Positions 17,794 through 46,111 of a stretch of DNA of 55,952 bases are shown here, in pieces. Below the pieces are notes generated by a model. That model saw only the letters and a program-made list of their open reading frames with translations. It had not been told where the DNA came from and ran no database searches. The first letter of the stretch is position 1. Each line of letters opens with the position of its first letter. Origin of the DNA: Folioceros fuciformis (taxonomy: Eukaryota); assembly GCA_049999805.1 (NCBI GenBank), contig JBNGIO010006279.1, positions 154,533 through 210,484 of the forward strand, written 5' to 3'. Both the position numbers and the translations under genes were made by a program.

Positions 17794-18398
17794 GGCGGGA
17801 AAATGCGACCTCTCCTGCCCGCACCTCGAAAGCGAGCACCGCTAAGCTACCGCTGACGGCTTCCTCAACATTCCAGATCGACCGCCCTCACCTGGAATCG
17901 CTCACAAACTTTCTCCTCGATCGTGAAGCTTTCTTGCCGCATTCCTCCGGCCGCGATTCCAGTGCCCGACTCCTATGGAGCCTTGTCAGTGTGGATGAGG
18001 AGGAGCAGAACCATGCGATCCTGGTTCCATTCTGTCCCCTTCCACACATGTTTCGTCGCTTCATATTTCCGCACTACATGGACCTCGTGGCCGGCAAGCT
18101 GCCACGTAAGTGTTCAGGGGTAACGGCATTTGCAGTTCGATTTTGTCACTGGTTTGGGAATGGGGATGGAGCGTTTGGAATGGGGCAAGTAACTTTTTTT
18201 GCTCCCTTGGTGTTTCCCAGTCGGAGTTTTTGTGTGAAGTGGACCATTCATGCTTAGACTAGCTTTTGCAAACTCCTATGAATTAGGTTTCGTTGGCATT
18301 ACGTTGGAAGAAGAGTTGGGGACAGTTAGCTCAAAGTGTGAAGTGTGACAAAAACCCTAAATGAGTGAAGTCTCTAGAGGAGCAAGTAGTGGAGAGCC

Positions 18399-20207
18399 AT
18401 GGCTATTCCCATAGATCAACTCTTGGATGATCATGCGACGCTCCGGACTTTAGGTCGCACTCCTATAGGTCGACGAAGGAGTCTGAGTGTGGATAGGTTA
18501 ATTGATCGTCCTATTATCAGCGGGTTGGATATGGGAAGGGAGCCTCCCAAGGCAATGGCGGCTGCGGAAAGAGGAGGCCGTCCTCCTGCTAGCATTGATG
18601 AATCTGAAAGAGTGAAGGTTACCGTGCGATTGAGGCCGCCACCTGCTATAGACAACAACCAAGACGATGGTGCACCTTTCATTTTTCTTGATACAGAAAA
18701 TAACACTGTCATCCTCCGTAGGAGAGGTAGTTTCACGGATTTCACAGAGTTCAAATTCGATGCCGTGCTACCACAAACTTGTCAGCAAATGGATGTGTAC
18801 AACGTAGCTGCAAAGGCTGTTGTTATGGATGTTTTGGATGGTTACAACGGCACCATTATGGCTTATGGACAGACAGGAGCTGGTAAGACATATACCTTGT
18901 TCGACAGTCATCACAATCTTGGAGGCTCTCAAATTGATGAAGGTATAATTCCGCGATCAGCAGCAGAAATTTTTGACAGGGCAAAACATGATAAGGATCA
19001 TGAGTACCATGTCTCTATGTCATATATTCAAATATACATGGAACAAATTCAAGACCTACTGAGACCAGAAAGTTGTAACATGCAAATCCGAGAAGGTGAG
19101 AGTGGTGTATATGTATCTGGAGTTGAGGAGGTTCAGGTCAAATCAGTGGATGACTGCATGAAGCTCTTGATGCTTGGTGATCGCAATAGAAATTTTGCTT
19201 TCACAAAGCTCAATGCGCATTCGTCCAGAAGTCATGCAATTGCCATGATCACTGTGGAAAAGAAGGCCTTGAATACGAAACAAAAAAAGGTTACTGATAG
19301 AAGAAGAAGAAGTTCCATTGCATTTCTAGAAAGTGAGAAGATTTTAGTAGGAAAGTTGCATCTTGTGGATTTAGCAGGTTCAGAAAGGTTAAAGAAGAGT
19401 GGTTCTGAGGGTCAAAGAGCATCAGAAGCTATGAGCGTGAATCTATCTTTAACTGTGCTAGGAAAATGTATAAGTGCAAGAGCAGATCCAACTAAGACAC
19501 ATGTTCCATTTCGTGATTCTAAACTTACTCGTCTTCTTCAAGAATCTCTAGGAGGCAATGCTAAAACTTCATTAATAATCAATCTTGCTCCGTCTAGTGA
19601 GTATCTACAAGAATCATTGTCTTCATTAACCTTTGGGTCCAGGGCTATGAAAGTATCCACGAGAGCAATTGTAAATGTGGAGGAAGAGTTTAGAGTTATC
19701 ACTAGAAACTTGCAAGAAGCCTTAAATCTTCAAGACGAGAGATTGCAATCTCTCGAGGCTGCAGTACTTTCCAAGGATGAAGAACTCTTGGAAGCACGAA
19801 AAAGTTTAGAGTTCCAAACAAAACAAGTTGAGAAGCTTAAGGAACAACAAAAAGAACACTCATTTCACAGCCAATATCAAGACAACTTAGAGGACACTGA
19901 TTGGAAGACAGCCATGGATGAAGCTAATTCAGCAGCTACAAACAGTTTAAGAAAAAGAATAGGCATTCTACAGGATGAACTAAAAAAGCTAAAAGGCTTA
20001 AGTGGTGGTCCAAATGTCATGAACAACACATTAGCCAGAGATTATGCGGCTCGGATCATCCAAAAGGCTTATAGAAGGAGATACGCAATCCATTTACAAG
20101 AAGAGAAGAAAAAAATGGAAGCAATTGCAAGCTATCAATTAATGGCAAATTCAGCTACTAGAGTGCTAAAAGCCATGAGAGTTCTTGACAATTACTTCAC
20201 TAGATGA
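18399..20207 (+). CDS. Intronless kinesin motor protein, ARK-like motor without armadillo repeats, with coiled coil and IQ-like motif (602 aa)
   Basis: RVKVTVRLRP; P-loop GQTGAGKT; switch I NAHSSRSH; switch II LVDLAGSER; HVPFRDSKLTRLLQESLGG; coiled coil; AARIIQKAYRR near the C-terminus. Confidence 0.93.
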   Translation: MAIPIDQLLDDHATLRTLGRTPIGRRRSLSVDRLIDRPIISGLDMGREPPKAMAAAERGGRPPASIDESERVKVTVRLRPPPAIDNNQDDGAPFIFLDTENNTVILRRRGSFTDFTEFKFDAVLPQTCQQMDVYNVAAKAVVMDVLDGYNGTIMAYGQTGAGKTYTLFDSHHNLGGSQIDEGIIPRSAAEIFDRAKHDKDHEYHVSMSYIQIYMEQIQDLLRPESCNMQIREGESGVYVSGVEEVQVKSVDDCMKLLMLGDRNRNFAFTKLNAHSSRSHAIAMITVEKKALNTKQKKVTDRRRRSSIAFLESEKILVGKLHLVDLAGSERLKKSGSEGQRASEAMSVNLSLTVLGKCISARADPTKTHVPFRDSKLTRLLQESLGGNAKTSLIINLAPSSEYLQESLSSLTFGSRAMKVSTRAIVNVEEEFRVITRNLQEALNLQDERLQSLEAAVLSKDEELLEARKSLEFQTKQVEKLKEQQKEHSFHSQYQDNLEDTDWKTAMDEANSAATNSLRKRIGILQDELKKLKGLSGGPNVMNNTLARDYAARIIQKAYRRRYAIHLQEEKKKMEAIASYQLMANSATRVLKAMRVLDNYFTR

Positions 20208-23829: not shown

Positions 23830-26800
23830 TCACGATTCAATAAGGGATGCCACATGCGGCCTGAGGCTGTGCGCCAGTCGTTCAAAGCTCCTTGCAAGCT
23901 GTACGTCGTCCAGGCTGAGCGAGAATGTGCCATTTCCAGCCGCCGCCATGGCCTGCAAGGTTTGCATATCGGTTCGACTTCCAAACAGGAGGGTGTGGAC
24001 CATCAGACGTGGGTGGTCTTTCATCATTTGCTGAACGGCTTCTATCGGGTTGACACTGCGGTTTCCGTTGCGACCGTCGCTGAAGAAGATGATGACAGGT
24101 GCAGAATTGGCTTCCCTTCTTCGTCCGAGGACTGTGCAATTCAGTACGTCGCTTGCTCCAAGTAGTCCGCTGGCGTAGTTGGTGCCGTATCTTGGAATTT
24201 TCTGCAGGAGAAGCTGGAGGAGAGTTTCTGGTTTGTTTTCACTTGTCTGCGCCACTATATCTGTATTGTCATCAAAGAGTACGATGGATACGATGTCCTG
24301 GTCGGCTCCTTTCTTGTAGGCTGCCCTCCTCCTCGTCTGCAGGAAGTTGTAAATGGCCTCAAAAACAGCTCCCAGCCTGTTGCAGTGAGTGGTTTCCAAC
24401 AGCCTGAGGGTGGGGAAAATGTCGCATCTTCCCATGGACCTGGATTTGTCTATCACAAAGATGATATGCTGGACGCAGCTTGCGGCATGCTTGCAGTCGA
24501 ACACATGACCGTCTTCTGTAACATATCCTGAGGTCAGGGCACCTTTGGCCACAGGGAGATGCCACATCGGCTGACTGCAGAAAGACCTGCCGTCAGAAGT
24601 ATCCGGGTGTTCCTCCGAGCGGCAATAGTGGTTACAGAGTTCAAATTCCAGGCGATGCTTCTCGGGGCAGGGATCCTTGAAGCCCAATTCCTCCCAATAG
24701 GCCTGGTGTGTCAACTCATCTTTGGCGACGTGAAAGTCAGGGCCGTACGGCGATCTTTCATGCCTGGCGCCTTTGTACTGCCTTTGACATGTTCCAAATG
24801 CATTGGGCTCGCATTTGGCAAGATGGATATGACCCCTGCCCTGTTTCTCGCAGACAAGCATGCACAGCTCGGCTACTCCCGAGTCACCCCATGCGTATTG
24901 ACGACCGCTCAGCTCGATCTCCTCCTTTTCCGACGCAAACATAACGTTCCTCATATTGCCATGCGTGGTATCGTGTTTGCCTCGATGCCCGATTTCTAAA
25001 TGGCACAGGTACCCACATGCTTTACACCTCTCCTCACAGCCGTGTGGCACATTCAGGTTGGTGCTGTGACAGTGAGGCCCTTCATGCTGCTCCTCCCCTG
25101 CCGGAATGGGGAAGCAGCACGTCTTCCTCACACCATGCTGCTCGGATACCTGCTCAATCTCAAAACAACTCCTCTTGCCATTGAAGGTTTGGTTATGGAT
25201 CACTTCGGTATGTATATTACACCATCCTCGTGCTGCACACGGGGCGTTACATGCGTGTTCTTGGTCACACAGATGTTTGTCGGATTCCAGCGCGTGAAAG
25301 TGATCGGATGATCCGCATGTTCTGGTACACCCTTCCATTGAACAGGTGATGGGACACATCTTCTCGCGGCAATGATGCCGATTGTGGTCCGAGTCCAGAG
25401 CAATATCGCACACATTCACACAATACGGCAAAGAACATTTCTCTCCACACAGGTGGTGGCTGGTGTTACATCTGTGCTCTCCAACATGATCTGGCTTCAA
25501 GGCACAAGCGTGGGCGCAGTTCTGAGACTGCCCCTTGAACCTGCATTCCATCCCACAGCAATGGGTCCTGATTTTGCAGTCATGGGCGCCGTCGTGCCCG
25601 CTCGGATGCGTGCATGGCTTCTGCTCCTCGCATCCCTCTTGGATGCAGTATGTACAGGACTTGGCACATACATGGCTTCCCATACAGCTGTGTCCGCCGA
25701 AATGCGCCTTCCCCAGAACGCAATAAAGGAGGCAGTCCTTGCATTTGCAGCTGCAGAGAGTCAGGGATTGCTTCAGCCCAGCGAGCGTGGAGGCGGCTTC
25801 GAGGCGCAGGTTCTGGACATCGCTATTCAGTGCGAATTCTGCCGTGTTGCAAGCCAGCCAGTCGAGAACTCTACTGCGGCGTCTGTTTGCCAGTAATAGT
25901 AGAAAATTGTTGAAGCGTTGGTGCCACTCCTCGTTCCTCTCCCCAGACCTCTCCCAAACGGTCTCGAACTCTGGTCTCAGAGTCTGGATTGTGCTGCCAG
26001 AGTGCGCTTGCTGGTCAGAATCCGTGAAGAGCTCCAGGCCTGCATCAGGGATGTCGAATATGTGGCCATCGATGTTGACAGGCATGTCCGGCACCGCCTC
26101 GTCTGTGTCGAGGTTGGTCAGAGGAATGTCCTTCGACAGAGTTCCAAGGTTGATAGCTGTTCTGACGTGTTTTCTCAGAAGATCCAGTTTCAGGGCTTCT
26201 CGCTTTACATCAGATGGAGACCAGTCCCTGGTGCTGATTTGAGCTGTGATAAGCTTTAAGTCCGCGGAGAAGTGTCTGCCGCTAGGAAAACCGGTTTGCA
26301 GGTCTTCCACCTCCTCTGCAATTTCCTGCACGTTTTCGTGGTACTCGCTTCTCTGAATTGGGGACATGGCAGCAACCACGAGACCGCTTCCATACATTTT
26401 TGTAAGAAAGCTTTCCTCAGCCTTTCCTTGTAACAGATCTATCTTTTGGATGAACTCATCTTTCAGCTCATCTACATCTGACAACACCACATCTTTGATG
26501 GCAATGTAAAATACCCCTTTGAAAAATCTAGTGTCTGCCTTCACAAGGCTCACAGCCTTCTGGAAGCGCTGAAACAGCGCCTCCGTATCTTTATCGAGAT
26601 TGAAATCCTGCGGGAGGTGGAAACGTTTTCAGTCCACAGAGTGAAGAAGTATGCACGATAGTCAGCCACGAACGCAGAGCTCTGCTTCAGGGCCTCATAC
26701 CTTTTTGTTGAAGATGGTGATGTTGCTGACGGCAGCATTCAGGACAGACAGTAAGACGTCCTCTTGGTCACTCCTTTCGAAGCTGCCTAATCCTTCAAAA

Positions 26801-29800
26801 TCCAGCAGTACATACAGGCAGCCCGGAGAGGGCCGCATTGTCATCCATATGCCATCGGTGCAACGTCCTCCAGCCACGTCCAGTATCGACCCACTGAGGT
26901 GATTCAGCAGGTAAGATTTGCCGCTACTCTGCTTGCCCATGGATGATATGACCTTCACGGGCTGTCTCCAGTTTTCGAGGACAGAATCATACAGGCCGAA
27001 ACGGAGGCTGTTGGATAGGGACACAGCATCATCGTAGTCTTGATTCGACGACATTTGCAGGCCGTCAATCAAGGGAGTGAGTGTGTTGTTTTCTGCCCTT
27101 GCTATTTGGATGGGCACCAAACAAATCAGCAGACGTATCCAGTCTCCCATGACCATGAGGTTCCTAGGTCCCAAGCTGTCCTTCAGCTCATTTCCAGCAA
27201 CATAGTGGGCTACTGTGTCCGAAGCCACAGAAAATTTCAGCTTGGAAAAGCTCTTGCCCTCCTCAGTCTCGAGCCTGTTCATCAAGGACGTCACACATAC
27301 CTCACACTTTTTCCGAAGCCCATCTGTCTCCGATTCAGGTCCGTCGCCTCCCAACACCACATGCAGGTGGAAGTCTCTGACCCTTCCCACAAGTGGAGGG
27401 CTGGTTGAGTACTTGTCAAATATCTGGTATACATATTCAAGCTCTGGGCAGGTTGCTTGAATCGCAACAGGCGTTTCCGGCTCTCTTGATCGGACCTTTC
27501 CCACTTTCTGCAACCGACGAACTTCCGCTGTCACACTGATCTTCATGATGTGCGACTGCAGTCCTTTGGCTGGATCTGACGTATCAAGCAAAATAAGGTG
27601 TAGCTGAGCACCAAATGCAACGACAGCGGCATCTATTCTGGCAGTGCCCAGCATAGAGTGCTCAAGCGGGATGCTGTTCAAGTTCGCCATGCTGTCGTCC
27701 AGAAAGTAGACATCCAAACTAGAAACGTCTTCAGGTCCCGCAGCATCAGCATCCAGGCTACCAGGTCCGTGGAAGACGAGAAGGCATGATCCATCCAGCG
27801 AGACCTTGGCAAGTGCAAATGGACGTCGAAGGCAAATGGCTCTGGGTCTGATCACGGTAGCACCTTCGAACTCCAAGACTCGCACTTTCAGTGCATCATC
27901 TATGAGAATAAGGGCTCTCTTGTCCGGAATGAACATCAAAGCAGTGAGATTCGTGCTTCCGGTGTACTCAGAAAGTAGCAAATCATGGTCCACCCAGTGA
28001 AGCTTTCGATAGGAGTCACAGAATCTGAAGATGCTGATCTTACTCGAAGTCTTGTCATACAGAGCCAAACATTCCAGGCATTCATCGTAAGCTACCAGGT
28101 CATAGCCTCTTTTGAATGATTTGACCAGGTTGGCAGGTGTGATCTCAGAACCCATCTTCCTGGTTACATAGACGCTCACAGTAGAATCGTTTTTGTCTTT
28201 GACCACCACCAGGACTTCACCTGTTTTGATGAGCACGACAAGCAGGACTGTCTCACAGCTTGCATCCAGGTTGATCAACTTGGTAGGTGGAGAACACTTA
28301 GGCACAATGACCTCGTCTTTAACAGTCAGCTTGTCAAGATCTTTCTTCATTGGGGTAAGCTCAATCACGTTCCACGTTATTCGCTCGGGCAGAGTGACCT
28401 CACAGGTGTATTCCAAAGCCAAGCTCACGAGGCCTCTCTTCTGGGCATACTTGCCGACATCAGTCTTCCTGGCTGGCGAGCAGGTTGTTACGGTGAGGCT
28501 TGGCCTTCCCGCTTGTGAGCACAGCTTCACTTTGTCAACTGTGTCCAAGAACTTTGCCTCCTCTTCATCCAGCGACTTCAGCAAAGAAGAGGTGGATTGC
28601 TGCTTCAGAAATTGCATTCTGGCTCGCAGAGATGGCAGAATGAACTTCTTCGCTGCCCTCATAAGCCTGACATTAGTATCGAACCAGGCACGCGTGTATA
28701 CAGCTCTGACGGCTTCTCGAGCTTCCACGCCGACGAAGGCGTAATGCGCTTGGGACTCAAAGGCGGTGTTTTGTAGCAGCTCACTAAGTCTCTCATCTGG
28801 GAAATGTTGATTGAAGAGGTTAAGCGCATCAGCTGAATCCAAGATTTCCTGAGCTTCTAGAACCAAGGCTTCGGACACGGCACGAGGAACGTCGTCAACA
28901 CCGGACGTTAAGTAGGCTAGCTTCTTTGATCTCTCCAAGAGGTTGGACACATCAATGTTGATGGATGCCTTGATCCATTTCACGATCCCTGAGTGCCCCA
29001 CCACCTTGAGCTGAACGACATGGCTGGAATTGTCCTCACCTCGTCTTAGATTGCACCGAAGAGACTGAGATGTAGGCACGGGACCTACTGGGCAATCTCC
29101 TTCAAGAGCGGCGACAACTACTCTGTGGCTGATGTTCTCATCTCTATTACTCAACACAAAGTCCTGACTTAGGAGGACAGGGCCTGCACGGCTTCCGTTA
29201 GCAGCTTCTACAACAAACACCTTACCCTCTGCCCATAGAGGAGGGGGACTAGCATCTACAGACTCAACAATCACTTCAGAGCCCAGAAAGACCAAAGCCG
29301 AGGGCAATTCCGTTGCATCGGGATGCTTCTCACTTCCCGCCCAGGCATCGAAAAGTTGGACACTTGCGTTGTCGAGAAAATCTGAAGCAGTGTACTCTCC
29401 CCAAGGATGTGGTCCTTGGAGAGAAGTAACGTCGCCATCGGCATTTTCTTCCCTTTTTTGTAGTGAGCTTAGCTTCAGTCCTTTTTCTTCATCAACATAG
29501 TGAACCACACGATATGCTTCCACACAGCTCACAAGAATGTCCCCAATCAGTTGTTGCTGTTCCTGTACTAGTGTGCCCACCTCACCAGCTAGGTGCTGGT
29601 CAGCAGCTCTTCTGCTATTGGCTTCTTTGAGCAGCTTGCAGTAATCTATACTTTCCGGGAGACCAGCATGTTGAAGAAACAATGACAACTCGTGCTTTGA
29701 AAGTCGGCTTATATCGACGTTGTTATTGGTCAGCCAGTCCCTCACTACCTCACGCAGCTTCTCTGTTTTGACAGTCATGGAGGCAATACGATGAATCTGT

Positions 29801-30954
29801 CGCGATGGATGGAAGAGTGAGTACAGCAATGCAGCACGCTGCCTCCCTTCACAGAGCTTCAGCATCACGGGAGTCCCGTCATGGGCATAACCTGGAAGCT
29901 TTGGGTGGACATCAAACCCTGGGTGCAGACTTAAAGCGTTCTCTGAATCTTTGACTATAGCCACCTGCAGCCTTTGAGTTCTCTGTTTTCTCTTCAGTTT
30001 CATGGCCTCTGCAATAGATAAGTGGGAGGCATCCAGTGCCGAGGCGTCGAGGCAGACATAAACTGTCTCACAAAGGTCAGCCACATATCTGATGAAATTG
30101 CAACACTGCTTGGAGGCTGGTTGGAGGCATTGCCCGTGGTGCCAATAAAACACATAGAACGTCCTGCCATGGTGAATGCCGTATAGGCCTGTCTCCAGCC
30201 CGTCAGAGGTCATTAACCTTGCAAGGGTTTCATCAAGAAGCTTGAGCCTCTCAAGCATACTAATGAGTACCACCTTGCTCCCATAGAGGCCAACCACATG
30301 CAGGGCAGCACCGTTGAGGGAGTCAAAGTCCAGGTTGATTGTCGCATCCTGATAAGATGCCGAATTTTCCAAGATGCCTTTGCATAATTCAACGATCTGG
30401 TCTGGAGAAACAAGCAATTTCTCCACGAAGGTTGCATCTACCCTATCAGCCTTGACCTGCATCAGATTGTACAGTCTTGTTTCAACGCCACCAACACAGG
30501 CATGCTCTAACTTTGCAGGCACAAGCTTGGGGTCAGAGCTCGTCACGTGCCCATCTTGTGAACAGCCAATCCTTATTTCCTCGTCCCTGTCAACACATCC
30601 CCGCATCTGCATCTTAGCCTCAGTACGAACTGATTCGGAGGGTAAAATCACGTTCGTATCATAGGCCGCATCAGATTCAGGCTCAACTAAATTTATGCCG
30701 GATGAGGCAGTGTCATGGCCCAAGTCTGCCTTCGACGCACACTCCAAGGGCGTCGAAACACATTCCACCTCAATGACATCGGCAGACACTGACACAGCAA
30801 TCGCTGTGTCTTGCGTCTGCACACTCGGAGACGACAATATCGTCCATACATCGCCCTTCTCCTCGTTCTCACCTAACTCTACCGCTCCGCAGTCTTGTGC
30901 ACCATACCACGGGGAAAATTCATCCACAACACACAAGTCCTCTCCTCCTCCCAT
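23830..30954 (-). CDS. Giant (~2343 aa) GBP/VLIG-like P-loop GTPase with Cys/His-rich repeats and C-terminal VWA domain; 2 exons (30954-26701, 26607-23830)
   Basis: A 93-nt phase-0 GT-AG intron (26608-26700) joins the 1419-aa and 907-aa ORFs in frame (FNKK|DFNLDKD). G1 GKQSSGKS, G2 RCTDGIW, G3 LLDFEGLG; repeated C-x3-C-x5-H-x-G-x-H-x-C units; VWA with MIDAS IIFVIDKSRSM, GTNY and IIFFSDG. Confidence 0.85.
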
Positions 30955-33517
30955 GTCCTCCTTAGAACCCTACCTCACAGCCTTCTTGTATACGCTAATC
31001 TGGCCAGCAAAGACAAGAAAGATTGTCAACAACTAGAGAAACAAGGGATACCGGTACATGTCTACCCACGTCGCTGGATGCAGGCAGACCTTCTTCTCTG
31101 CAAGTACAGCCCTCCGCTGTACGAGCATCCACCAAGGCTCCCGATGTACCACACTGACACGAACTCAGCTACGTGCTCAAAATGCCAAGCCTTAGGGCAT
31201 CAAATGCGACCACTTTTGAAGGACGTCCCATCTGTCACCATAGCAACAAATGATGTCGCGCCTCATACAACATGCACTGGCCTAATACACGATCGTTCTC
31301 AGCAAATGCCACGTTTTGAAAATCTACCGTCTTCCCATGCCGATTGTCACCAGCGAAGGCAGACATCTATGGTACGGTCCCCACCTCAAGGGACGGGACG
31401 TAACCAGACGACGTACGAACAATCGAAATGGCAAATACGTATCGCCACAATGTCTCCGCCCTTCAAAAACCTAAAATGTTTCAACCGAGCACCAGTTGCT
31501 ATCCCAACGGCCAACTGCCACTGTCATGGTATAAGGAAAGAGGAACTGAGTCCATTTCTCAGTCTGACATTTACGGAAGGGTAGACAATGGAGACTTTAT
31601 TATGTGCACTCGCACATCTGAATCCTGAGACGGAGAATTCAGCGTCTGTTTTCCTGAATGGATAGAAATCACCAAATCTGAAACACTTTGTGCCCAAATA
31701 CAGAGAGCCAAGGGTGAAATCATGGACTCCACAGCTGCTGTTGCCCGTTCATCTGCACAGATTTTCATGCACAAGTGATGCAGTTTAGGTAAATTGAAAC
31801 AAAGATTGTCATGAAAGCTCGTTGTGCACAGAGTAACAACACGCCTACACTCACACCACACTGTAAAGTCTCAAGCACCAAAGTGCAGAGTTTCGTCTGA
31901 CGACTGCGCGCTAGAGACAAAATCATTATCCTCATATGCTAGCACGGATGCATGATTCTAAGTGCCTAGGCCCCTCAAGAACCGTCTGTCTGATGCCTTT
32001 CGTAAGTCCTCCACAATTGCAAGTATCGACGAGCTTTCCTGCAGCCATGGCTTCCAATTTCAAGGAGAAAAATTCCCGGTGTGGTGGAACCGGGAACGCG
32101 CTGCGGAATTAGGCCTGTTCCCGCCGGCTCGCCCCCTCCGCATCGGCGTGCAACAGCTGCACGCCCCAACGGGAGTGGATGAGAAGGGAAAGCCGGACTC
32201 CGCAGGAAGCCGAAGTCCGGGAAGCGAGGGAGGGAACCGCGAACCCCACAATCCGGACGAGCATGTCGCGGAACCGAGAGCCTCCGGCCCGCACCTGGAT
32301 CACTGGGAAAGTGTCCGCCGAGACTTTCATCATACGGGTTTCTCCGCGGCGTTGGGGTTGGTGTATGACTAGCAGCTGTCGTTGAAGATGAGAATGGAAG
32401 AAACCGCGAGAAGGGCGCCCAGCACCGGGTTGACACTCTGGGTGGCCGCACACTAAAGTCCGAGCGCCGGTTCGCCGATGCTGTCCACGGGGATCGTCAC
32501 CGCCGAGGAGGTGCAAGGTCTACCCGCTGCAAAGCGCAAACGGCAGGCGCACGAATCGACTTGTTGCAGCCAGCCTCAGCCACATGCAAGGAATTCAGCT
32601 GGTTCTGAAAACCGTTGGGCACCCGTGCACCGCAGCCACAAGCCTGCGCTTTCGGCAAAGAAGATTCAGGGGTCGAAGGCATCCAGCACCCGAGGCACCT
32701 TGCCCTATCGGCAAAGCAGAGCCTGAGCTTGGCATCGAGCCGCAGGCCACTTGGTACGCTTTAAACTTGTGGCTCACGTGAGTCACAAAGTTGACCTAGC
32801 AAACATGTCTGCGAGCAGGGCCACAAAAACTCAGACCAATAGCGAGGCCTGACACGAGGTGCTCCCCACCCGTGCTCGGCGAGCTCTAGGGGACAGCAGA
32901 TTTTTGGAACGACACCACGGGCGCTCATCACAAGCCTGTTACGTGCTTCGCTGCTGGTGCCTGCTGGTCAGGACTGTCTCGAAGGCGTTAAGCACCGGCG
33001 GGGGAGGTATGAAGATGCTGGCAAACCTCAGTTGGGCTGAAAAGCAGGGACGTTGGAACCTGAGGGCTCGTGGATTCGGGAAACAGCGCAGCGCTAGCCA
33101 AGCGCACAGCGGGTTGCTCGAATCGAGACTGGCAGTGGCGGGCTCCAGCCACCCAGTCCTCCAAGCAACAGATCGAGGACGCAGGCCGCTGCTGGAACCG
33201 GTCCCACCCTGTCGTCCAATCGTCACCTCTAGCACGGCCCGCGGTCTCCAATGCACACTGGACACCTGTCCAGAAGAAACGCAGTTTCGGTTGCAGCAAA
33301 TAGCTCTGGCAACCTGAAGACGAGGGTTCGAATCGCGGTAATTTCGGCCGGATTCCGCCACAGATCACACACCAGAGTACAAAAGTACTGGGAGATCCCA
33401 CGGTGGAAGGCTATACAAAAACCCTGCGAGAAACCCGAAACCCTGCCAAAAGAGAGCATGCGATTATTTCATCAAGGCAAGTAATCGAAATACTTTGTAA
33501 ACAGATACCGTACTTAA

Positions 33518-33617
33518 NNNNNNNNNNNNNNNNNNNNNNNNNNNNNNNNNNNNNNNNNNNNNNNNNNNNNNNNNNNNNNNNNNNNNNNNNNNNNNNNNNN
33601 NNNNNNNNNNNNNNNNN
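33518..33617. other. Assembly gap (100 N)
   Basis: Run of exactly 100 N. Confidence 0.99.
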
Positions 33618-34319
33618 CGTACTTAATATTGGATTTGATGCGGATAACTGAAATATATATATCGAAACGAATCATTGCAATGGAAGATGGAGAAAGCTGA
33701 GCGAGGAGAAGTTACTGACTGGCTTTGAACTTTTTGGGTTCGGCCTTCCCCGGGTTGTTTCCTTGCGGGGCAGTGGATGAACCCGGTAGGGAAGTCGGCG
33801 GGCGGCTGCGCACTGCATTCTAGAAGTGGAGCAGGCGGAGTCCGATTCTGTACCTACTTTGTCTAGAGAAAACTCATTGCCTTTCCTGAGAGTTCCTTGG
33901 AGAAGACAAATTCGGAGAAGGTGCAGCTGGACCTGGCTTCTGCCTTTGGCTCCAGGCCTTGGCCTTGCCTGATGCGATCGCACTTTTGTCTGGAGTACAT
34001 CGAGATCGGACCTCAAACCGCTGCTTCCAGCCTCATGTGATGATGGGTATTCGTGATGATTCACACTGAACCGCGCACTTCCTCCGTACCCCGGATGGCA
34101 TTGGATTTGCGTGCAACGGCCGTCCATGGCTCCCGCCTTTTGATGGACAAATTAGAAACCGAGTTTTTGTCGGTTATTAGGAACGTGTCCTGGCTTCACA
34201 TTCCATTGAGGTCACTGGGAAAGCGGAAGATGCCTCCCCACGAGGCGTTGTATAAGAATCCATGTTGCCGCGGCCTTATCTCAAACAACCCAACCCGGTG
34301 CCTTACTCCCGACCTTGAC

Positions 34320-36337
34320 ATGGCGAGCCCGAATGTCGTGCGTGTGACGAGTGGGATTTTCATCGTCCTAGGCCTCACTCTTGCAGCACTACAGCTGAAG
34401 TCAGGTACATGCTGCTCCAGCCTCCTGTGCTTTGGGGCGGTACCGGTGCTGGTTTTGACTGAGACCAGTTTTGGAGCATGATCGGGTAGTAGTGCTGTGC
34501 ATGATTCTGTCCCTGGGTGATGGTGGTGACACTGTGTGGAATTTGTTTTGTGACACGTGCAGTGGCGGCGACAGCACCTGCAGCCGCCGGGCCTTGCAGC
34601 TCCTTCATTATAACGTTGCAGGTCTCCAATGTTGCTCAGATCGCTACCCGTCTCGACTACAGTCCCAACCAGACCGTCAACATCGTGCTGCTCCAGGACA
34701 TTTCCCTCACCTCCAGTCTCATCTTCGACAGCAATTACTCCTGCACCATCTTCACTTCCTTGAAGAACACGAAGCGAAAGATCCGAGCTACCAATAACAA
34801 ATTCCCCACGTTCCAGATCCGTGGTACAAACAACGTGCTGGTGCAGAACGTGGGGTTCGAGATCCCGCCCACCCCCGGCACGAATCTTCCTCCCTGCCCT
34901 GTGTTGCTGCCCAATGACATGAACACGCGCCTGCATTGCCCCGCCGTGTTGATCCACGAATCCTGGGGCATCCAGTTGGTGCAGGCGGTGATTAAGGGCA
35001 GAATCGACATCCGCGAATCCCCCCATACCACTCTCGACTCGCTACAAATCACGTCGTCCACGGCCGAGAAGGGCATGGTCCAGGTCTCTCAGTCTGGCGA
35101 CGGGCCCAGCAGGACCAGATCCGAAATCGTCATATCCAACTGCAACTTCACGGGCTCGCAGATTGGGTTGCTGCTGGTTCGGGGTGCCGTGGGAGTCACG
35201 GTGCGCAACAATTACTTCAGGAATCAGAACTTCACAGGCGTCCAGTGCGGGGCGGGAGTGGTTAATGTGGGTGACTGCATGCTTGGCACCTTCGTCAACA
35301 ACTACTTCACCTTCACGCCGGACTTCACACCGCAGGCCGACTCTAGTGCCATGTACTTCGGCACTCACTGGGTGAATCCTGGCAACTACATCTCCTGTAA
35401 CTACGTGGTGGGCGGGAAACAGTGCCTCTACCTGGACTACGCTTCCAGCGGCACTACCGTGGACGGCATGGTGTGCATCGGACTGCCATCGGGATTGAAG
35501 CTCAACACCGGCCACTCCAACGCCGTCTCGAGCTTCATCACCATCGGCGCTCGGCTGCCTGGCTGGATCAGCTGTCAGAATTACTTCATCAACAACTGTA
35601 ACCAGACTGTTGGGGCCTACTGGGACGCCACCAGGCTCGCTTACTACGACTCTCCAGACTGGGAGCGGGTAAGACATGAGCAATCGCCTACAGACTTTGA
35701 TTTGCTGGCTTCCGCTCAATGTTTTGCACCGATCTGATCACGTTTCTGGTTGCATTCATCATTCGCAGGACTATCCTTGGCTTAACAACTTCTGCGACCT
35801 CACCTCGTTCAACGGCCAGCCCTGTAATCCCGATGGCAGCATATCAGCCTCAATTACAGGAAGGTGCAGCGGCCTACCCACAGGTAACCTCCTCCTCTCT
35901 TCGCACGCTTTGAAATTCCTTGTTCTCCAGGACCGCATACCAGACATGAATGAAAGCAAGATTTGATAACCCAGAATCGCTAATTTCTGCTCTCACCCTT
36001 CCTCCTGGCAGGTAATAGTGTCTCAATAGTGAACGTGGACCCAATCAGCAGAAACACGCCCACCTACTTGAGCTGTACCGGGGTGACGTCAGTCACATCC
36101 GGATCCCTGAACGACATGGACTGGTTAACCTTACCTTCAGCTCTGGCACTGTTCAACAACCCCAGCCAGCAGGACTACGGAGTAGATAACAAGCTGTCAC
36201 CCATCTACCTCAAGTATCCAAACTTCAAGTCGTGTCCCAAGTCCCAAGTGGGCATCAAGTCCGTGAGCTCCTCAACGTACATGGCCAACTTCAATGTGCC
36301 TCCAGGTCCTGCAGTTCCTCCATTCCTCCTCACCTGA
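34320..36337 (+). CDS. Secreted right-handed parallel beta-helix (pectin-lyase-fold) protein, ~543 aa; predicted exons 34320-34404, 34563-35668, 35769-35883, 36012-36337
   Basis: Signal-peptide-like first exon (MASPNVVRVTSGIFIVLGLTLAALQLKS). Three GT-AG introns keep the frame (1632 nt total). Asn-ladder beta-helix repeats IVISNCNF, VTVRNNYF, GTFVNNYF, GNYISCNYV and LYLDYASSGTTVDG. The first exon is inferred; ATG 34520 is an alternative start. Confidence 0.72.
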
Positions 36338-37247
36338 TCCTCTCACACCTGCTCCCATTTATAGCCTGCCAAGAGGTACAATAATCAGCACTAGGCTAGC
36401 TAGACTCACGGTTGAAGTGACAGTGGCTGGACTTGGTGCATATGGTATAGCTCTCATTACTGCTTATGATCCTGCTCCCAGCTTGGCTGCCAGCCACTCT
36501 CCTTCACAGTGCGCCTCCTAATAAAATGAAGCAGGCCAGCTGTACATAGAGGTGGTCCGTTACACCATGCCTATCTAGTAGGTCGTGGACTTGGCCAAAC
36601 ATAGTCCACACCTTGCTTTTGTAGCCCCCTAAACCTGTCCCTTTTCTGCATCGCCGAAAAGGATGTGGGCGTTAAGTTAACCCCAGAGGGAAACAACAGC
36701 CTCATTTTGAATTGGTGAGGCTATTTTTTATATTAATTTTCATTTTCATTTTTAACTATGTCGACCTTTGAGTCAACTACCCTGAAGGACGCGGCAGTTT
36801 TACCGCATAATATAGCCGGTAGGGACAAGAAAACGAAGTCCATTTGCCTTTAGGGTTTAGGGGTGTGGTGGTGCTTAGCTATTTTCATAATTGAAGTTTT
36901 TGTTTAGAAATCAGGATGGTGATTTGATTATGGTGATAGTTTGTGTGGAGGGACAAGGGAGAAGAGTTGTTTGTGAAAGCTTGAGAAAGCCTTCGTAGAC
37001 ACCTTTAATGGTCCCGCGGACGTCCCATTACGGACGAGGCCAAACTCAATGTGAGTAGGCCTTGATAGAATAATTGTTGTGAAGGATACCGATCAGAAGA
37101 GACGGGGTTGTCGATGTCAGTTTCAGTGGAACATGTGGGTACTACATACAAAACTGTCTGCACCTTCGAGGCTTCGGGGAGTGTGGTCAAGAATAGTTTA
37201 TTGGACGATCTGCGATGGTCCGTCCTTAGACTCGTCGTCCCACAAGG

Positions 37248-40200
37248 ATGGCTGCAGTATGGCAACCAGACCCGCTTTGGACCCAACAAATTGGTGTGTA
37301 TACAGGGATTCTACCAGGAGCTCCTTCTCATCTCGTCTCAGGCAGTCTACCTCTGTCATACAAAGCCTCCAGGGGCTGCAGCAGTGTAGGGAGCCCAGGA
37401 CTGCCACTTCCGAAGACGTGTGTGACTTGGGACCGGTCGTACAGCGATGCTAGTTGCCATGGGCAGCAGCACTGGCGGAAGCAATTTTTTCTTCTGGATA
37501 CTACCGTGTGGTGGGATAACAGGCGAGGTAAGAAGAGATCCCGTTTCCCTGACTTCCGGCGTAATGGGTCCGGTGAGATGCTGTTGTCAAACAACATGTC
37601 CAAGCCAGCTTGGGTTGATGACCAGCTTGTTTCCTGGGATATGGAGATGGGTATTGGTGCGTCTCCTGTGGGATCCAGCTCTCCTAGTAAGCCTGGACTT
37701 GACAGGCTTGCAGGTTCGGAAAGTGGCATCGTACCTGCTGTGACCGTGAGCACGTTATGTCAGCAGGGGAAGCTTTCCGAGGCTGTGAGAGCTCTGGAAT
37801 CTCTGGCGCAGATACATTCTGCTGTTTCTCCAGCACTGCTTTACTCTGTGCTGAAACTATGTACAGCTAGGAAGGATATGGTTTTGGGGCGACGAGTTCA
37901 TGATCTCTGTGTCAAACTTGGGTACGAGTCAAATGCGTACTTGGGGAACCATATTTTGCGTATGTATGCATGTGGAGGTAGGCTGGAGGAGGCCATGACT
38001 GTGCTGCGCAGGGTGGGCAGACCAGATGCCTTCATGTGGTTTTCCATAATCTCCGCTTACACTAAGCATGGCAGACCGAAGAGGGCCATTCAATTGTACT
38101 ATGAGATGCGTAAGTCAGGAGTCAAGGCTGATGCTCACGTCTTTGCAGCTGCCCTTCAAGCTTGCGCATTTGCTGCTGACTTGCAATCTGGCAGAGAAGT
38201 GCACAGTGATGTGTTGAACAGTGGCATTGCTGCCAACTTGTTTATTGGCAACTCCCTAGTGGACATGTACGCAAAATGTGGCGAACTGGAAGATGCACGC
38301 CAGGTTTTTGACAGAATGGCCTCAAAGAATGTGGTGACCTGGAATTCACTGATAGCCGGGTATGCCAAGCAAGGGCTCGGACACGAGGCTCTTGTTGTGT
38401 ATGGACAAATGGAACAGGAAGGGCTGCTTATGGCTGATGAGTTTACTTTTGCTTGCCTTGTGAAGGCTTGTGCAAGCATTGGTGCGCAGGCCTTGCAGAA
38501 GGGGAGGGAGCTGCATTCGCAGATAGTCAGACGAGAACTGCTGGAGAGCGTTGTGTTGGGCACCTGCCTGGTGGACATGTACGCAAAATGTGGCGAGCTG
38601 AGAGATGCACGCCAGGTTTTTGATAGGATGGCCAAGAAGGATGTGGTGACATGGAATGCCCTGATATCTGGGTACGCGAAATGTGGTGAACTGGAAGATG
38701 CACGCCATATTTTTGACAGCTTAACCACAAAAGATGTGGTGACATGGAATGCCCTGATTGCTGGGTATGCACAGCAAGGACTCGGCAAAGAGGCGCTTCT
38801 TGTGTACGGAAAAATGGAGGAGGCGGGCCTCAGTTTGGCAGACCATGTGACTTTTGTTTTCCTTCTGAAGGCCTGTGGAACCACTGGTGCTCTTCAGAAG
38901 GGCAGGCAGCTGCACTCGAAGATTGGCGAAAGAGGGCTCTTGCATAACGTAGTGGTGAGCACCAGCCTGGTGGACATGTATGCGAAGTGTGGTGAACTGG
39001 GAGATGCACGCCAGGTTTTCGACAGCTTGGCCACAAAGGATGTGGTGGCATGGACCGCCCTCATTTCCGGGTACGCACAGCAAGGGCTTGGACATGAGGC
39101 GCTCGTTTTGTATGGAGAAATGGAGGAGGCGGGCCTCATTCTGGCTGACCACGTTACCTTTGCTTGCCTTCTGAAGGCCTGTGGAAGCACCGGTGCTGTA
39201 CAGAAAGGCAGGCAGCTGCACTTGCAGATTGTTGAAAGGAACCTTCTGGATGACATAGTGGTGGGCACCTGCGTGGTGGAGATGTACGCAAAATGTGGCG
39301 AACTGGAAGATGCACGCCAGGTTTTTGACAGCTTGCCGAAAAAGAATGTGGTGACATGGAATGCCCTGATAGCTGGGTATGCACAGCAGGGACTGGGCCA
39401 AGAGGCCCTTCTTGTGTATGGTGAAATGGAGGAGGCGGGCCTCATTGTGGCTGACCATGTTACTTTCTCTTGCCTTCTGAAGGCGTGTGGAAGCACTGGT
39501 GCGTTGCAGAAGGGCAGGCAGCTGCACTCACAGATCGTGGAAAGAGGACTGCTGGATAAAGTAGTGGTGGGCACAAGCCTGGTGGACATGTATGCAAAAT
39601 GTGGTGAACTGGAAGATGCACGCCAGGTTTTCGACAGCTTGGCCGCAAAGAACGTGGTGACATGGAATGCGCTGATTGGTGGGTACGGTACCTGCGATGA
39701 AGGTCACAAGGCACTAGCTTGTTTTGAGGACATGTTAGTTGCCGGTATTCAGCCCGATGATGCTACTTTCACGTGCCTTCTAGTAGCCTGCAGTCATGAG
39801 GGACTGGTCCATGAGGGTCTCAGGTACTTCGATTCCATGGCTGCACAGCATGGCATCAAACCTACTCTCGAGCATTACACTTGCATGGTTGATCTTCTGG
39901 GGCGTGCAGGCCATTTGCAAGAAGCTGAGAAGATGTTGCAATCATGCGAGGGCCACAGTAATGTTGTGGGCTTGACGGCTTTATTGAACGCTTGCAAAAG
40001 TCACGGGGATATAGAGAGGGCTAGGAGGTGTTTTGAAAGCATCGTCAAGCTGGACCCTCAAAACACGTCTGCGCATGTGCTCATGGCCAGTGCCTTCGCA
40101 GATGCAGGTATGTGGAAGGATGTAGACAGGATAGAAACACACAGAATGGTAGCAGGAGCTAACAAGAAACCTGCAGTGGCAACCGTTGAGGTGAACAAGC

Positions 40201-40568
40201 TGGTCCATAGCTTCATGGTCGGAGAACGGAGAGAGGACATCGCTCTCAAGGTAGAGAGCACGAATGCTCGTGTGAAGCAGGAAGGGGGCCATGTACCGCA
40301 GACAAAATTGGTGTTGAAGCCCCTGGGTGAGCAGGAAAAGGAAGATGCACTATGTGGGCATGCTGAGAAGCTGGCGCTGGCGTTCGGTCTGTTGAACACT
40401 CCGAGAGGGACACCTCTGGTGGTAACGAAGAATCTACGCATGTGCAGCGATTGCCACAGTTCCACGGAGGTCATGTCAAGGCTTGAGCAGAGAGACATTG
40501 TTGTAAGGGATGGGTACCGTGTGCATCGATTCTCCAGTGGTGGTTGCAGTTGCAAAGGTCGAGCGTGA
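37248..40568 (+). CDS. PLS-class pentatricopeptide repeat protein with E1/E2 and DYW:KP (GRP-type) deaminase-like domain; intronless; start codon uncertain
   Basis: Tandem P-L-S motifs (VVTWNALIAGY / HVTFACLLKAC / TSLVDMYAKCG); KKPAVATVEV in place of the PG box; HAEKLA; KNLRMCSDCH; C-terminus CSCKGRA. Confidence 0.95.
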   Translation: MAAVWQPDPLWTQQIGVYTGILPGAPSHLVSGSLPLSYKASRGCSSVGSPGLPLPKTCVTWDRSYSDASCHGQQHWRKQFFLLDTTVWWDNRRGKKRSRFPDFRRNGSGEMLLSNNMSKPAWVDDQLVSWDMEMGIGASPVGSSSPSKPGLDRLAGSESGIVPAVTVSTLCQQGKLSEAVRALESLAQIHSAVSPALLYSVLKLCTARKDMVLGRRVHDLCVKLGYESNAYLGNHILRMYACGGRLEEAMTVLRRVGRPDAFMWFSIISAYTKHGRPKRAIQLYYEMRKSGVKADAHVFAAALQACAFAADLQSGREVHSDVLNSGIAANLFIGNSLVDMYAKCGELEDARQVFDRMASKNVVTWNSLIAGYAKQGLGHEALVVYGQMEQEGLLMADEFTFACLVKACASIGAQALQKGRELHSQIVRRELLESVVLGTCLVDMYAKCGELRDARQVFDRMAKKDVVTWNALISGYAKCGELEDARHIFDSLTTKDVVTWNALIAGYAQQGLGKEALLVYGKMEEAGLSLADHVTFVFLLKACGTTGALQKGRQLHSKIGERGLLHNVVVSTSLVDMYAKCGELGDARQVFDSLATKDVVAWTALISGYAQQGLGHEALVLYGEMEEAGLILADHVTFACLLKACGSTGAVQKGRQLHLQIVERNLLDDIVVGTCVVEMYAKCGELEDARQVFDSLPKKNVVTWNALIAGYAQQGLGQEALLVYGEMEEAGLIVADHVTFSCLLKACGSTGALQKGRQLHSQIVERGLLDKVVVGTSLVDMYAKCGELEDARQVFDSLAAKNVVTWNALIGGYGTCDEGHKALACFEDMLVAGIQPDDATFTCLLVACSHEGLVHEGLRYFDSMAAQHGIKPTLEHYTCMVDLLGRAGHLQEAEKMLQSCEGHSNVVGLTALLNACKSHGDIERARRCFESIVKLDPQNTSAHVLMASAFADAGMWKDVDRIETHRMVAGANKKPAVATVEVNKLVHSFMVGERREDIALKVESTNARVKQEGGHVPQTKLVLKPLGEQEKEDALCGHAEKLALAFGLLNTPRGTPLVVTKNLRMCSDCHSSTEVMSRLEQRDIVVRDGYRVHRFSSGGCSCKGRA
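38260..39690 (+). repeat. Near-identical ~306-bp tandem units (P-L-S triplets) inside the PPR gene
   Basis: ggacatgta(c/t)gc(a/g)aa(a/g)tgtgg(c/t)gaactg...gatgcacgccaggtttt recurs at ~38261, 38573, 38972, 39278 and 39584 (spacing 312, 399, 306, 306). Confidence 0.9.
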
Positions 40569-44700: not shown

Positions 44701-45719
44701 GGCAACCTCTCTTGCATGGCATGCTTCATCGCCCTCTCCGTATTAAGCTGCCACATCCAGGGGCTGAGAATCAGCAACAAGCAGTACAGCACAGATGACC
44801 AAGGCTCGTGGCTACAACACCAGTAGAGAAACAAACAGACCACCACGGGCACTCATCGAGCAGACTTAGAACCAAGCATTCCAACAGCAGCAAACAAGGA
44901 CTCCCAAAACCCTAGACGGGGTTTAAGCTCCTCTCCCCTGGCCTGAAGCATTACCATAACTCCCTCCACCGCATCCACAACCAACACGGCCCCGTCCGCC
45001 AGCCGCAACGCGGCTGTCATCTCATCCGAGAAATTCACGTGCCCCGGTGTGTCCATCAAATTGCACAGATAGGACTTGCCGCCACTGTCCTCCAACACCA
45101 GCGACATCGGCATGCCCTTAATGGAAATTTGTCGCTCTTGCTCATCAATCCTAGTATCCGTGTACCGCAGATGCTTCTCGCTGTTAGGGTCCAAGGTGGT
45201 AATGTCGTGCGTCTGCTCCACCAGCATGTCCATTATCAGCGTCTTGCCGTGGTGCACGTGGCCGACCAAAGCCACATTGCGCACCAGCGCTGGGTTGGCC
45301 AATAGGCCGAGCAGGAAGTCCGTCTGCACGTAAGTGCTGAGCCCCTCCCGCATTGCCACCTCGAATTTCTTCGCCCTCACCGGCTTGATGATAGGCTCCT
45401 CCAGCGGCTGAGCGTCCTCGTCCATCACCAGCGTCTCCACACCCTCCCCGTACACCTCCATCGCCGTCGGGTAGTACTTCTTGTCCTCCGCCAGCACCAC
45501 CGCGCCGCTGTTCTCCACCTCCATGTCGTCCTCCTGCTGCTCCGACCCATCCAGCCTCGCCAGCCATGCCTCGTCTGATCCCCCGTTCTCCGCTCCTACC
45601 CCTCGCCTCTGCCTCTGCCTATCCTCCTCCTCCTCCTCCTCCGCCTCCGACTCATTATCATCGGACTCGATTTCCGGCCCGATGTAGTTCCCGAACTCGT
45701 CATACAAACTATCGTCCAT
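41735..45719 (-). CDS. GFA1: U5 snRNP 116-kDa GTPase Snu114/EFTUD2 (GFA1/CLO orthologue), multi-exon
   Basis: [110 protein letters not shown]; ends DLQQIL-stop. Confidence 0.96.
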
Positions 45720-46111
45720 CTCGCCTGATTCACCTTCTGTCCCGGGACTTCGTCGATCTATCAACGCTGCGCTCTCAGTGGAGCTCTCACCCGAGCTCGC
45801 TCGTCGGAGCGGCCTCGCTCGAATGACCCCGTTCCCGCGCAGGCAGCTACCCTAACCGTGGTTGGGTCATGTTAACCAGCCTGTGGTCGCTGCTTTGATA
45901 CGCATGTACACACATACGTCGCTTCTTCTGTACGAACATTGAATAAAATAGGTACTCTACTCGTCTCCCTCTGTTGGTCGTCGTTTGGTTGCTGGTGTTC
46001 TCGCAGCGATGGGAGGAGACAAGCAACCGCGGGGCTGAGGCCGTGGGGCGGAGAAACGGCGCGGGAAGATGTTCAAGAGCGTTGGAGCGTGAAGCGGACG
46101 GATTTGAAGCG

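Follow-up and report, generated by a model that had tools for sequence, protein, structure and literature searches.

In GBP1, atlastin and Sey1p, nucleotide binding drives dimerisation of the G domain and movement of the helical stalk. Large GTPases of the GBP kind have a central part in the cell-autonomous immunity of animals and, as GBPL proteins, of flowering plants. Here we describe a relative of these proteins from Folioceros fuciformis, encoded on the minus strand at 23830..30954 of a 55,952-nucleotide window of contig JBNGIO010006279.1 (the window being the whole stretch of DNA that was analysed, to which all coordinates refer). On sequence evidence, the gene is a member of an ancient family of giant GTPases, multidomain and cytosolic, that is spread across eukaryotes, and its predicted 2343-residue product would be a colinear full-length member, with an N-terminal domain, a β-propeller, a G domain, a helical stalk, a Cys/His array and a VWA domain following one another. 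The novelty lies in this architecture, that of a deeply conserved GTPase of the GBP/RHD3 clan which is undescribed and of which the databases hold hundreds of members. Residue numbers below refer to the spliced protein unless stated otherwise, and domains were assigned from Pfam, profile searches and AlphaFold2 models.

The gene model is defined by open reading frames (ORFs), splice signals and alignment to homologues. Two minus-strand stop-to-stop ORFs, 26695..30969 (1424 aa) and 23830..26628 (932 aa), are joined across a single intron of 93 nucleotides (26608..26700), which falls between the G3 and G4 motifs of the G domain, has GT..AG ends, a polypyrimidine tract and an in-frame stop, and reads AAG/GTATGA...CCCGCAG/GAT from donor (26700) to acceptor (26608). 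Coding exon 1 (26701..30954, aa 1-1418) starts at the first ATG of the upstream ORF, at 30954, with an in-frame stop five codons earlier; coding exon 2 (23830..26607, aa 1419-2343) ends in a stop codon at 23830-23832. The spliced coding sequence, 30954..26701 followed by 26607..23830, has 2343 codons and the stop. When the product is aligned with 25 full-length homologues, each residue flanking the junction (SNITIFNKK before it, DFNLDKDTEA after it) has its counterpart in ..SNLTIFNKKDFHLDKETEA.. or variants of that stretch; 0/25 show a gap at the junction, and the C-terminal end of the product coincides with those of the homologues. The gene is intact and consists of two coding exons, and the coordinates, 93-nucleotide intron and 2343-residue length proposed in an earlier annotation made from the DNA letters (here called the sequence-only reading) are correct on all three lines of evidence. 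The start codon at 30954 is a prediction, and an extra 5′ exon may exist.

Could the locus be something other than a working gene, such as a pseudogene, two ORFs wrongly joined or the passenger of a mobile element? The gene model, including its 5′ end, is a prediction, but a 7-kb open frame broken only by one canonical intron, the retention of all catalytic and metal-binding residues, and colinearity with homologues across the junction and on to the C-terminus make this exceedingly improbable. No further copy is present in the 56-kb window, where tblastn with the protein recovered only the gene itself. Some 2.6 kb upstream of the start codon, at 33518-33617, lies an assembly gap of 100 N, so that promoter-distal sequence may be missing.

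The G domain is the part most readily compared with described proteins. Pfam, profile and structure-sequence matches place a pre-G α/β extension and the first half of the domain at aa 1170-1418 (26701..27447), with the G1 motif GKQSSGKS at aa 1340 (26914-26937) and, within the same interval, G2 (RCTDGIW) at aa 1364 and G3 (DFEG) at aa 1385, all three located where the sequence-only reading had put them. The second half, at aa 1419-1523 (26293..26607), was recognised from the alignment and the exon 2 model and carries a G4-like AIKDV at aa 1454. The residues of G1-G4 show almost no variation across 44-53 sequences; they include D39 and V40 (exon 2 numbering) of the G4-like [IV]KDV motif, nearly invariant in a 53-sequence alignment. 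A helical stalk follows at aa 1524-1699 (25765..26292), predicted as helices at residues 110-281 of the exon 2 model with a pLDDT of ∼80-97.

Three Pfam families, all lying over aa 1326-1416, match the exon 1 product: URGCP_GTPase at 32.3 bits (cut-off 55; only profile positions 187-283 of 396), GBP at 30.1 bits (cut-off 21.1; positions 14-112 of 264) and RHD3_GTPase at 20.6 bits (cut-off 42.4; from profile position 1). The GBP match is confined to positions 14-112 as a result of the divergence of the domain and its division by the intron. Among solved structures, those matched by sequence are GBP1, GBP2 and GBP5 only, with E from 2.3e-7 (13/14 sequences listed), and the family profile matches GBP2 at E 5.6e-12 and Sey1p at E 4.7e-9. 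When aligned to GBP2 and GBP5, the family P-loop GkQStGKSylLNhL is paired with GLYRTGKSYLMNKL, RcTdGVWm with HTKGIWM, and LDFEGlgS with LDTEGLGD, implying that G1, switch I and G3 correspond. The GKS of the P-loop, the switch I pattern T-x-G-[IV]-W-M and the G3 pattern D-x-E-G-L-G thus align residue by residue with GBP2 and GBP5, and both the guanylate-binding proteins (human GBP1/2/5, plant GBPLs) and our protein have a helical region after the G domain. In other respects the two differ markedly. The catalytic arginine finger of the GBP P-loop (G-x-x-R-x-GKS) is replaced by Ser/Thr, PF02841 (GBP_C) gives no match at E≤0.1, and the chain ends in ..LIES after the VWA domain, with no CaaX box. 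The Folioceros protein is also some four times larger than a GBP, having in addition the propeller, zinc array and VWA domain.

Twenty full-length homologues give a similar picture. URGCP_GTPase matches 18/20 at E≤1e-4 and is the best G-domain model for 17/20, as it is for the query, but its cut-off is reached in 1/20 and the matches are limited to roughly positions 185-297 of its 396; GBP reaches E≤1e-4 in 11/20. The mid-placed G domain in a giant protein is a further likeness to URGCP and GVIN1, although neither URGCP nor GVIN is known to have a zinc array or a VWA domain. A search with aa 1300-1418 yielded 90 proteins from 194 candidates, with 37-78% identity, all of them having the family architecture or being fragments; no RHD3, GVIN or URGCP protein was among the 90, the search being by exact words and so able to see only such relatives. 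The Pfam, structure-sequence and profile matches, together with the GBP2/GBP5 alignment, support the earlier placement in the GBP/atlastin-RHD3/VLIG-URGCP clan. The label 'VLIG-type' is too precise, given a URGCP score of 32.3 bits where 55 are required. In our reading the G domain sits within the GBP/RHD3/URGCP clan but would represent a branch of its own.

It might instead be a housekeeping GTPase for membrane tethering or fusion, of the RHD3/Sey1/atlastin kind. The RHD3_GTPase match does begin at the first profile position, this model is the best for 3/20 homologues (with E≤1e-4 in 19/20), the family profile finds Sey1p, and the Q-S-x-GKS-x-LLN P-loop may resemble that of RHD3 and Sey1. Against this, both the query and 20/20 homologues fall below the RHD3 cut-off (0/20 reach it), and the C-terminal half consists of a zinc array and a VWA domain rather than a three-helix bundle and membrane anchor. 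Kyte-Doolittle hydropathy (window 19) exceeds 1.6 only at aa 216-234, 898-920 and 1266-1285, all inside predicted folded domains, with no hydrophobic segment, and hence no hairpin, near the C-terminus; an anchor of the RHD3/atlastin type therefore seems to be absent, and the protein is predicted to be cytosolic. The sub-cut-off scores and the missing anchor speak against a housekeeping RHD3/atlastin protein, and we regard this explanation as very improbable.

The C-terminal half is distinguished by an array of ∼420 residues rich in Cys and His, at aa 1703-2123 (24493..25755), delimited by invariant columns, motif shuffles and the exon 2 model. It comprises four or five tandem knuckles of ∼36 residues, H-x-C-x3-4-H-x-C-x3-C, with units starting at aa 1724, 1760, 1796 and 1863, followed by a β-rich Cys/His module. 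There are 49 Cys and 42 His in 450 residues, and the motif H-x-C-x3-C occurs five times in the array, whereas 2000 shuffles gave 0.475 on average and never more than 4. Of 44 invariant columns in the 53-sequence alignment, 42 are Cys or His, and the query has all 42, in agreement with the zinc-type array first proposed from the sequence. The model of the exon 2 product (mean pLDDT 87.6, pTM 0.69) shows the array mostly as short strands and loops, as would be expected for knuckles held together by zinc.

The knuckle pattern presumably resembles the NF-X1-type finger consensus and raises the possibility of a nucleic-acid-directed regulator whose array would bind DNA or RNA in the manner of the repeated Cys-His domain of NFX1, under the control of the GTPase. 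The tandem H-x-C-x3-C knuckles with their period of ∼36 residues, like those of NFX1, NFXL and ZNFX1, are the feature in its favour. There is also a precedent, since PMC8067315 describes Cys-His repeats in NFX1 that bind DNA and are joined to a PHD/RING E3 module. But no Pfam family, zf-NF-X1 (PF01422) included, matches aa 1688-2128 at E≤10, the ESM Atlas gave no usable match for the array (named clusters only, with VWA and G families skipped), and Pfam scans showed neither an R3H nor a helicase domain nor any further module for nucleic acids. In its second half the array forms a separate β-rich module, and it is not notably basic (K/R 9-13, compared with D/E 9-16, per 100 residues). We consider a nucleic-acid role improbable. 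Because it has neither a Pfam family at E≤10 nor a usable Atlas neighbour, we do not file the array as NF-X1-type; the term 'NF-X1-like' used earlier goes back to the H-x-C-x3-C motif only.

The protein ends in a VWA domain, aa 2129-2337 (23851..24477), identified by Pfam, alignment, fold search and motif. The HMM match (PF00092 / PF13519) is above cut-off, a Rossmann-like fold is predicted, and the metal-binding MIDAS motif is complete, with D-x-S-x-S as DKSRS at aa 2138 (24436-24450) plus the Thr and Asp, so that the MIDAS-bearing VWA domain of the sequence-only reading stands. In the 53-sequence alignment the MIDAS residues D720, S722, S724, T809 and D844 (exon 2 numbering) are nearly invariant. 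Other intracellular proteins combine a VWA domain with zinc, such as TFIIH p44/Ssl1, and RGLG1/2 and WAV3 are VWA-RING ligases of plants. The likeness to p44/Ssl1 amounts to generic VWA matches, with extracellular VWA domains scoring equally, and the query has no RING.

The N-terminal half is less conserved in some parts than in others. The first 150 residues (30505..30954) form an acidic tail, with 30 D/E compared with 9 K/R, as had been noted earlier; its coverage and identity in homologues are low. A conserved α/β domain follows at aa 161-414 (29713..30474), in which a strand leads to GLYGSK and a helix at aa 222. This N-domain is possibly a degenerate G-like (P-loop) fold, a suggestion that we treat as a lead only. 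When it was compared with the family G-domain profile by hhalign the probability was 0.2%, as low as in the controls (N-domain/VWA 0.1%, G/VWA 0.3%), and this profile comparison gave no sequence evidence for an internal duplication relating the N-domain to the G domain. A complex prediction of the N-domain with the G domain, the latter supplied as its two exon-encoded halves, scored 0.00 with the partner poorly folded and speaks neither for nor against a contact.

Next comes a helical middle region, aa 420-810 (28525..29697), which the model and alignments show as long helices with a low-confidence β stretch and in which the protein varies most (8-24% identity among plants, 0.51-0.55 among Cryptomeria paralogues). 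Beyond it the structure model predicts a β-propeller at aa 819-1150 (27505..28500), with ∼24 strands in six or seven blades; the propeller suspected from the sequence is thus present as a predicted fold. No WD40, NHL or Kelch family in Pfam matches it, the best being Beta-prop_Rol-3 at E 0.083, and the family profile reaches the Prp19 WD40 domain only at E 5.4e-4. At E≤10 Pfam gives nothing meaningful for the N-domain, middle, propeller and pre-G segments, and NCBIfam gives 0 families. In fold searches with the two large models a single domain took up all the matches, the VWA domain for one and the propeller for the other, so that the folds of the array, stalk and N-domain were barely probed.

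How widespread is this architecture? When 1.84 billion cluster representatives were scanned in full with the exon 2 product, 1171 matched at E≤1e-3, 622 at E≤1e-10 and 298 at E≤1e-30; the weakest of all these matches probably involve the VWA domain only. The closest representative is 65% identical, and most strong matches are proteins of 2000-2600 residues in which the alignment takes in the whole of the C-terminal 900 residues. The exon 2 product shows 30-48% identity, again end to end, to the C-terminal halves of proteins of this size, and the exon 1 product is covered to 89-92% by Ginkgo, Selaginella and Cryptomeria proteins of 2121-2352 residues. Among the best 150 representatives, 86 have at least 1800 residues, 133 contain at least three H-x-C-x3-C motifs, 120 contain D-x-S-x-S-M and 89 contain G-x-Q-S-x-GKS, many of these rows being fragments.

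The named matches come from liverworts (Calypogeia, Riccia), a moss (Ceratodon), a lycophyte (Selaginella), ferns (Ceratopteris, Adiantum) and gymnosperms (Ginkgo, Taxus, Cryptomeria), from green and red algae (Mesostigma, Botryococcus, Gonium, Galdieria), and from oomycetes (Phytophthora, Peronospora, Plasmopara, Lagenidium, Aphanomyces) and fungi (Ambispora, Diversispora, Cantharellus). They extend to Amoebozoa and a malawimonad (Dracoamoeba, Gefionella), dinoflagellates and a chromerid (Symbiodinium, Durusdinium, Effrenium, Chromera), a foraminiferan and a ciliate (Reticulomyxa, Stylonychia), and two animals, the acoel Convolutriloba and the sponge Oscarella. No flowering plant or vertebrate is among them, in lists (51, 8 and 90 rows, and 20 clusters) that are limited and not a census. 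The sequence-only reading had known of no characterised angiosperm gene with this architecture and had pointed to similar proteins from fungi, which indeed exist in the three genera named above; its restriction to seed-free plants was too narrow, in view of the gymnosperms, the many protist lineages and the two animals. A scan of viral contigs with the query protein gave no match, the scan using exact query peptides and so covering close relatives only. Database names within the family are automatic, such as 'VWFA domain-containing protein' or, for the Riccia member, 'VLIG-type G domain-containing protein', and no paper describing the family or any member was found in the literature searched, which lay outside supplements and subscription journals. 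By term search, VLIG, GVIN and URGCP do not occur in two papers on conflict systems, PMC7159879 and PMC8195603; GBP is likewise not mentioned in the former, and appears twice in the latter, for fusions of GBP GTPases to animal TRADD-N domains and in the reference list.

Around the shared core, accessory modules vary with lineage: an N-terminal B-box, a SAM domain, or RING together with B-box, and C2, ankyrin and AAA modules. The zf-RING_2 family is found on 12/90 rows of the G-domain search, with a RING plus B-box at the N-terminus of one further row. TRIM-like N-termini (RING and/or B-box) precede the GTPase core in P0206, P0062 and P0026, which are unnamed or protist records, with B-boxes on P0026 and P0062, while a C-terminal RING after the VWA domain occurs in 2/20 scanned homologues, this being where oomycete members place it. 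The Gonium homologue is named in the database as a RING-type protein. In P0070, a Mesostigma homologue of 3438 residues, three AAA ATPase modules with AAA lid domains follow the VWA domain; this extension is either a true fusion, reminiscent of the pairing of MoxR-type AAA and VWA proteins, or a merged gene model.

The descent of the family was examined with the region from the G domain to the VWA domain in the query and 37 homologues, chosen as named or nearly full-length, none of which was dropped (IQ-TREE quick search, LG+G4, 1065 columns, SH-aLRT support). The 18 land-plant rows (the query and 17 others) form one clade with support of 100, which makes inheritance within land plants look vertical. 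Inside it are ferns, gymnosperms and a group of bryophytes and Selaginella (98) that holds the query, together with its 64%-identical unnamed relative. Fungi, oomycetes, red algae and chlorophytes each form a single clade, also at 100, and neither the land-plant nor the fungal clade is nested in the other; Mesostigma groups with oomycetes rather than with land plants. Deep branches are weak: an AU test does not reject a grouping of land plants with fungi (p-AU 0.26, at a cost of 10.8 log-likelihood units), so that an ancient transfer between kingdoms may have taken place. Of the recent exchange that the words 'possibly horizontally shared' might suggest there is no sign, the land-plant clade being fully supported and the GC3 of the gene (0.56) resembling that of its neighbours (0.55 for a PPR gene and 0.50 for an RNase E gene).

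What might such a protein do? We favour, with a probability of about 0.5, a GTP-gated assembly scaffold with an input, a switch and an output. As input, the variable helical middle and the β-propeller would bind a ligand or partner, a role suggested by the usual function of propellers and by the variability of this region. As switch, the G domain would bind guanine nucleotide through its intact G1-G4 motifs and, by analogy with GBP1, atlastin and Sey1p, dimerise across the nucleotide face and move the helical stalk. The motifs and the homology of the domain are evident from the alignments; dimerisation is probable by that same analogy, and GTP specificity is putative. As output, the rigid multi-zinc array and the C-terminal VWA domain would form a platform for a partner protein, with the MIDAS metal capturing an acidic residue of that partner; the VWA fold and its MIDAS residues are there, and the acidic residue is suggested by what such domains do elsewhere. 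This output would most likely be coupled to ubiquitin-type marking, or to the recruitment of enzymes for it, since relatives in several lineages add RING and/or B-box domains. The N-domain might serve as a degenerate G-like regulator of the active G domain, again as a lead only. As for the process served, stress or defence surveillance is our first guess within the scaffold model, held at somewhat less than even odds.

Several observations weigh against this model. The G-domain matches span only the G1-G3 half, the arginine of the GBP P-loop (GLYRTGKS) is Ser/Thr in the family consensus GkQStGKS (GKQSSGKS in the query), and the G-like nature of the N-domain lacks sequence support, with an hhalign probability of 0.2% and no Pfam match. 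The nucleotide specificity of the family cannot be assumed, because DFCP1/ZFYVE1, a protein with a GBP/atlastin-like P-loop, binds ATP, not GTP, and dimerises in a nucleotide-dependent manner, according to PMC10329651. By that description DFCP1 is also like our protein in being large and in combining such a P-loop domain with zinc-binding modules, and unlike it in being an ATPase with FYVE domains. The link to ubiquitin is borrowed from other lineages, since a recognisable RING or B-box is not seen in land-plant proteins, this one included. A functional study of any family member was not found in the literature searched. Finally, the very high conservation of the core, and the single copy in the window amid housekeeping neighbours, are no less compatible with a conserved cellular role than with a gene engaged in an arms race.

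These last points bear also on the stricter form of the sequence-only reading, a dedicated cell-autonomous immune receptor and effector directed against pathogens or symbionts, in which the propeller would be a sensor, the GTPase would oligomerise as GBP/VLIG-like proteins do, and the zinc/VWA region would be the effector. The clan of the G domain includes the immune GTPases GBP1/2/5, and plant GBPLs act in defence, as described in PMC9005921. Lineage-specific expansion is also seen: Cryptomeria contributes 16 clusters, of which 14 share a chromosome-scale contig, and three Ceratopteris rows have neighbouring locus tags. The TRIM-like RING and B-box, SAM, C2 and ankyrin accessories of other lineages, and a patchy distribution with no flowering plant among the named matches, point the same way. 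On the other side, some Cryptomeria rows probably represent incomplete gene models, and Cryptomeria paralogues diverge most in the helical middle (0.51-0.55 identity), so that the propeller (0.62) is not singled out. Non-plant rows retain 35-60% identity for the G domain and 36-44% for the array, a degree of conservation across kingdoms that, with the single copy in the window among housekeeping genes, leads us to consider a dedicated immune function rather unlikely.

A bolder version of the scaffold model may also be put forward, as a speculation that we think unlikely to hold in full. The family would be a fourth branch of the GBP / atlastin-RHD3 / VLIG clan, as old as LECA (the last eukaryotic common ancestor), coupling GTP-driven self-assembly to a zinc-array/VWA output that is itself a ubiquitin-type ligase or brings one in, for cell-autonomous defence across eukaryotes from bryophytes, ferns and gymnosperms to oomycetes, dinoflagellates and early animals, with the N-terminal domain as a degenerate G-like pseudo-partner restraining the G domain until the propeller is engaged. 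On this proposal the family would have been overlooked because it is apparently absent from flowering plants and the usual model organisms.

The remainder of the window is ordinary land-plant nuclear DNA carrying housekeeping genes. Pfam searches of its other long ORFs identified an HKT/TrkH transporter, fructose-1,6-bisphosphatase, a kinesin, a methyltransferase, a class-3 lipase, a DYW-type PPR protein, the spliceosomal GTPase EFTUD2/Snu114 and an RNase E/G with a starch-binding module. An uninterrupted ORF of 1112 residues at 37230-40565 (+) has PPR repeats (356 bits), an E motif and a C-terminal DYW deaminase (111 bits), and its product is predicted to be an organellar RNA-editing factor of the land-plant type. 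At 52855-55950 (-), open at the window end, an ORF of 1032 residues carries a CBM20 starch-binding module and then an RNase E/G catalytic domain, and looks like a chloroplast-type RNase E. Two adjacent ORFs at 43278-45851 (-), presumably exons of one gene, correspond to the U5 snRNP GTPase EFTUD2/Snu114 and cover its N-terminus, GTP-binding domain, domain 2 and domain III. The kinesin motor exon at 18390-20204 (+) has a GC3 of 0.34, compared with 0.50-0.56 in the GTPase, PPR and RNase E genes, and lies in the AT-richest part of the window (18-22 kb, GC 0.37-0.43). Mutually overlapping ORFs of 410 residues (+) and 281 and 231 residues (-) at 34196-35737 have no Pfam match.

The interest of the locus lies in the family, of which the gene in this window is one ordinary member. 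Should the protein indeed prove to be a GTP-gated assembly platform with a link to ubiquitin signalling or defence, it would represent a new mechanism for the dynamin superfamily, and an immune or stress component kept by non-flowering plants and seemingly lost by flowering plants. The question is directly testable in tractable hosts such as mosses, liverworts and Ceratopteris, a fern with homologues.

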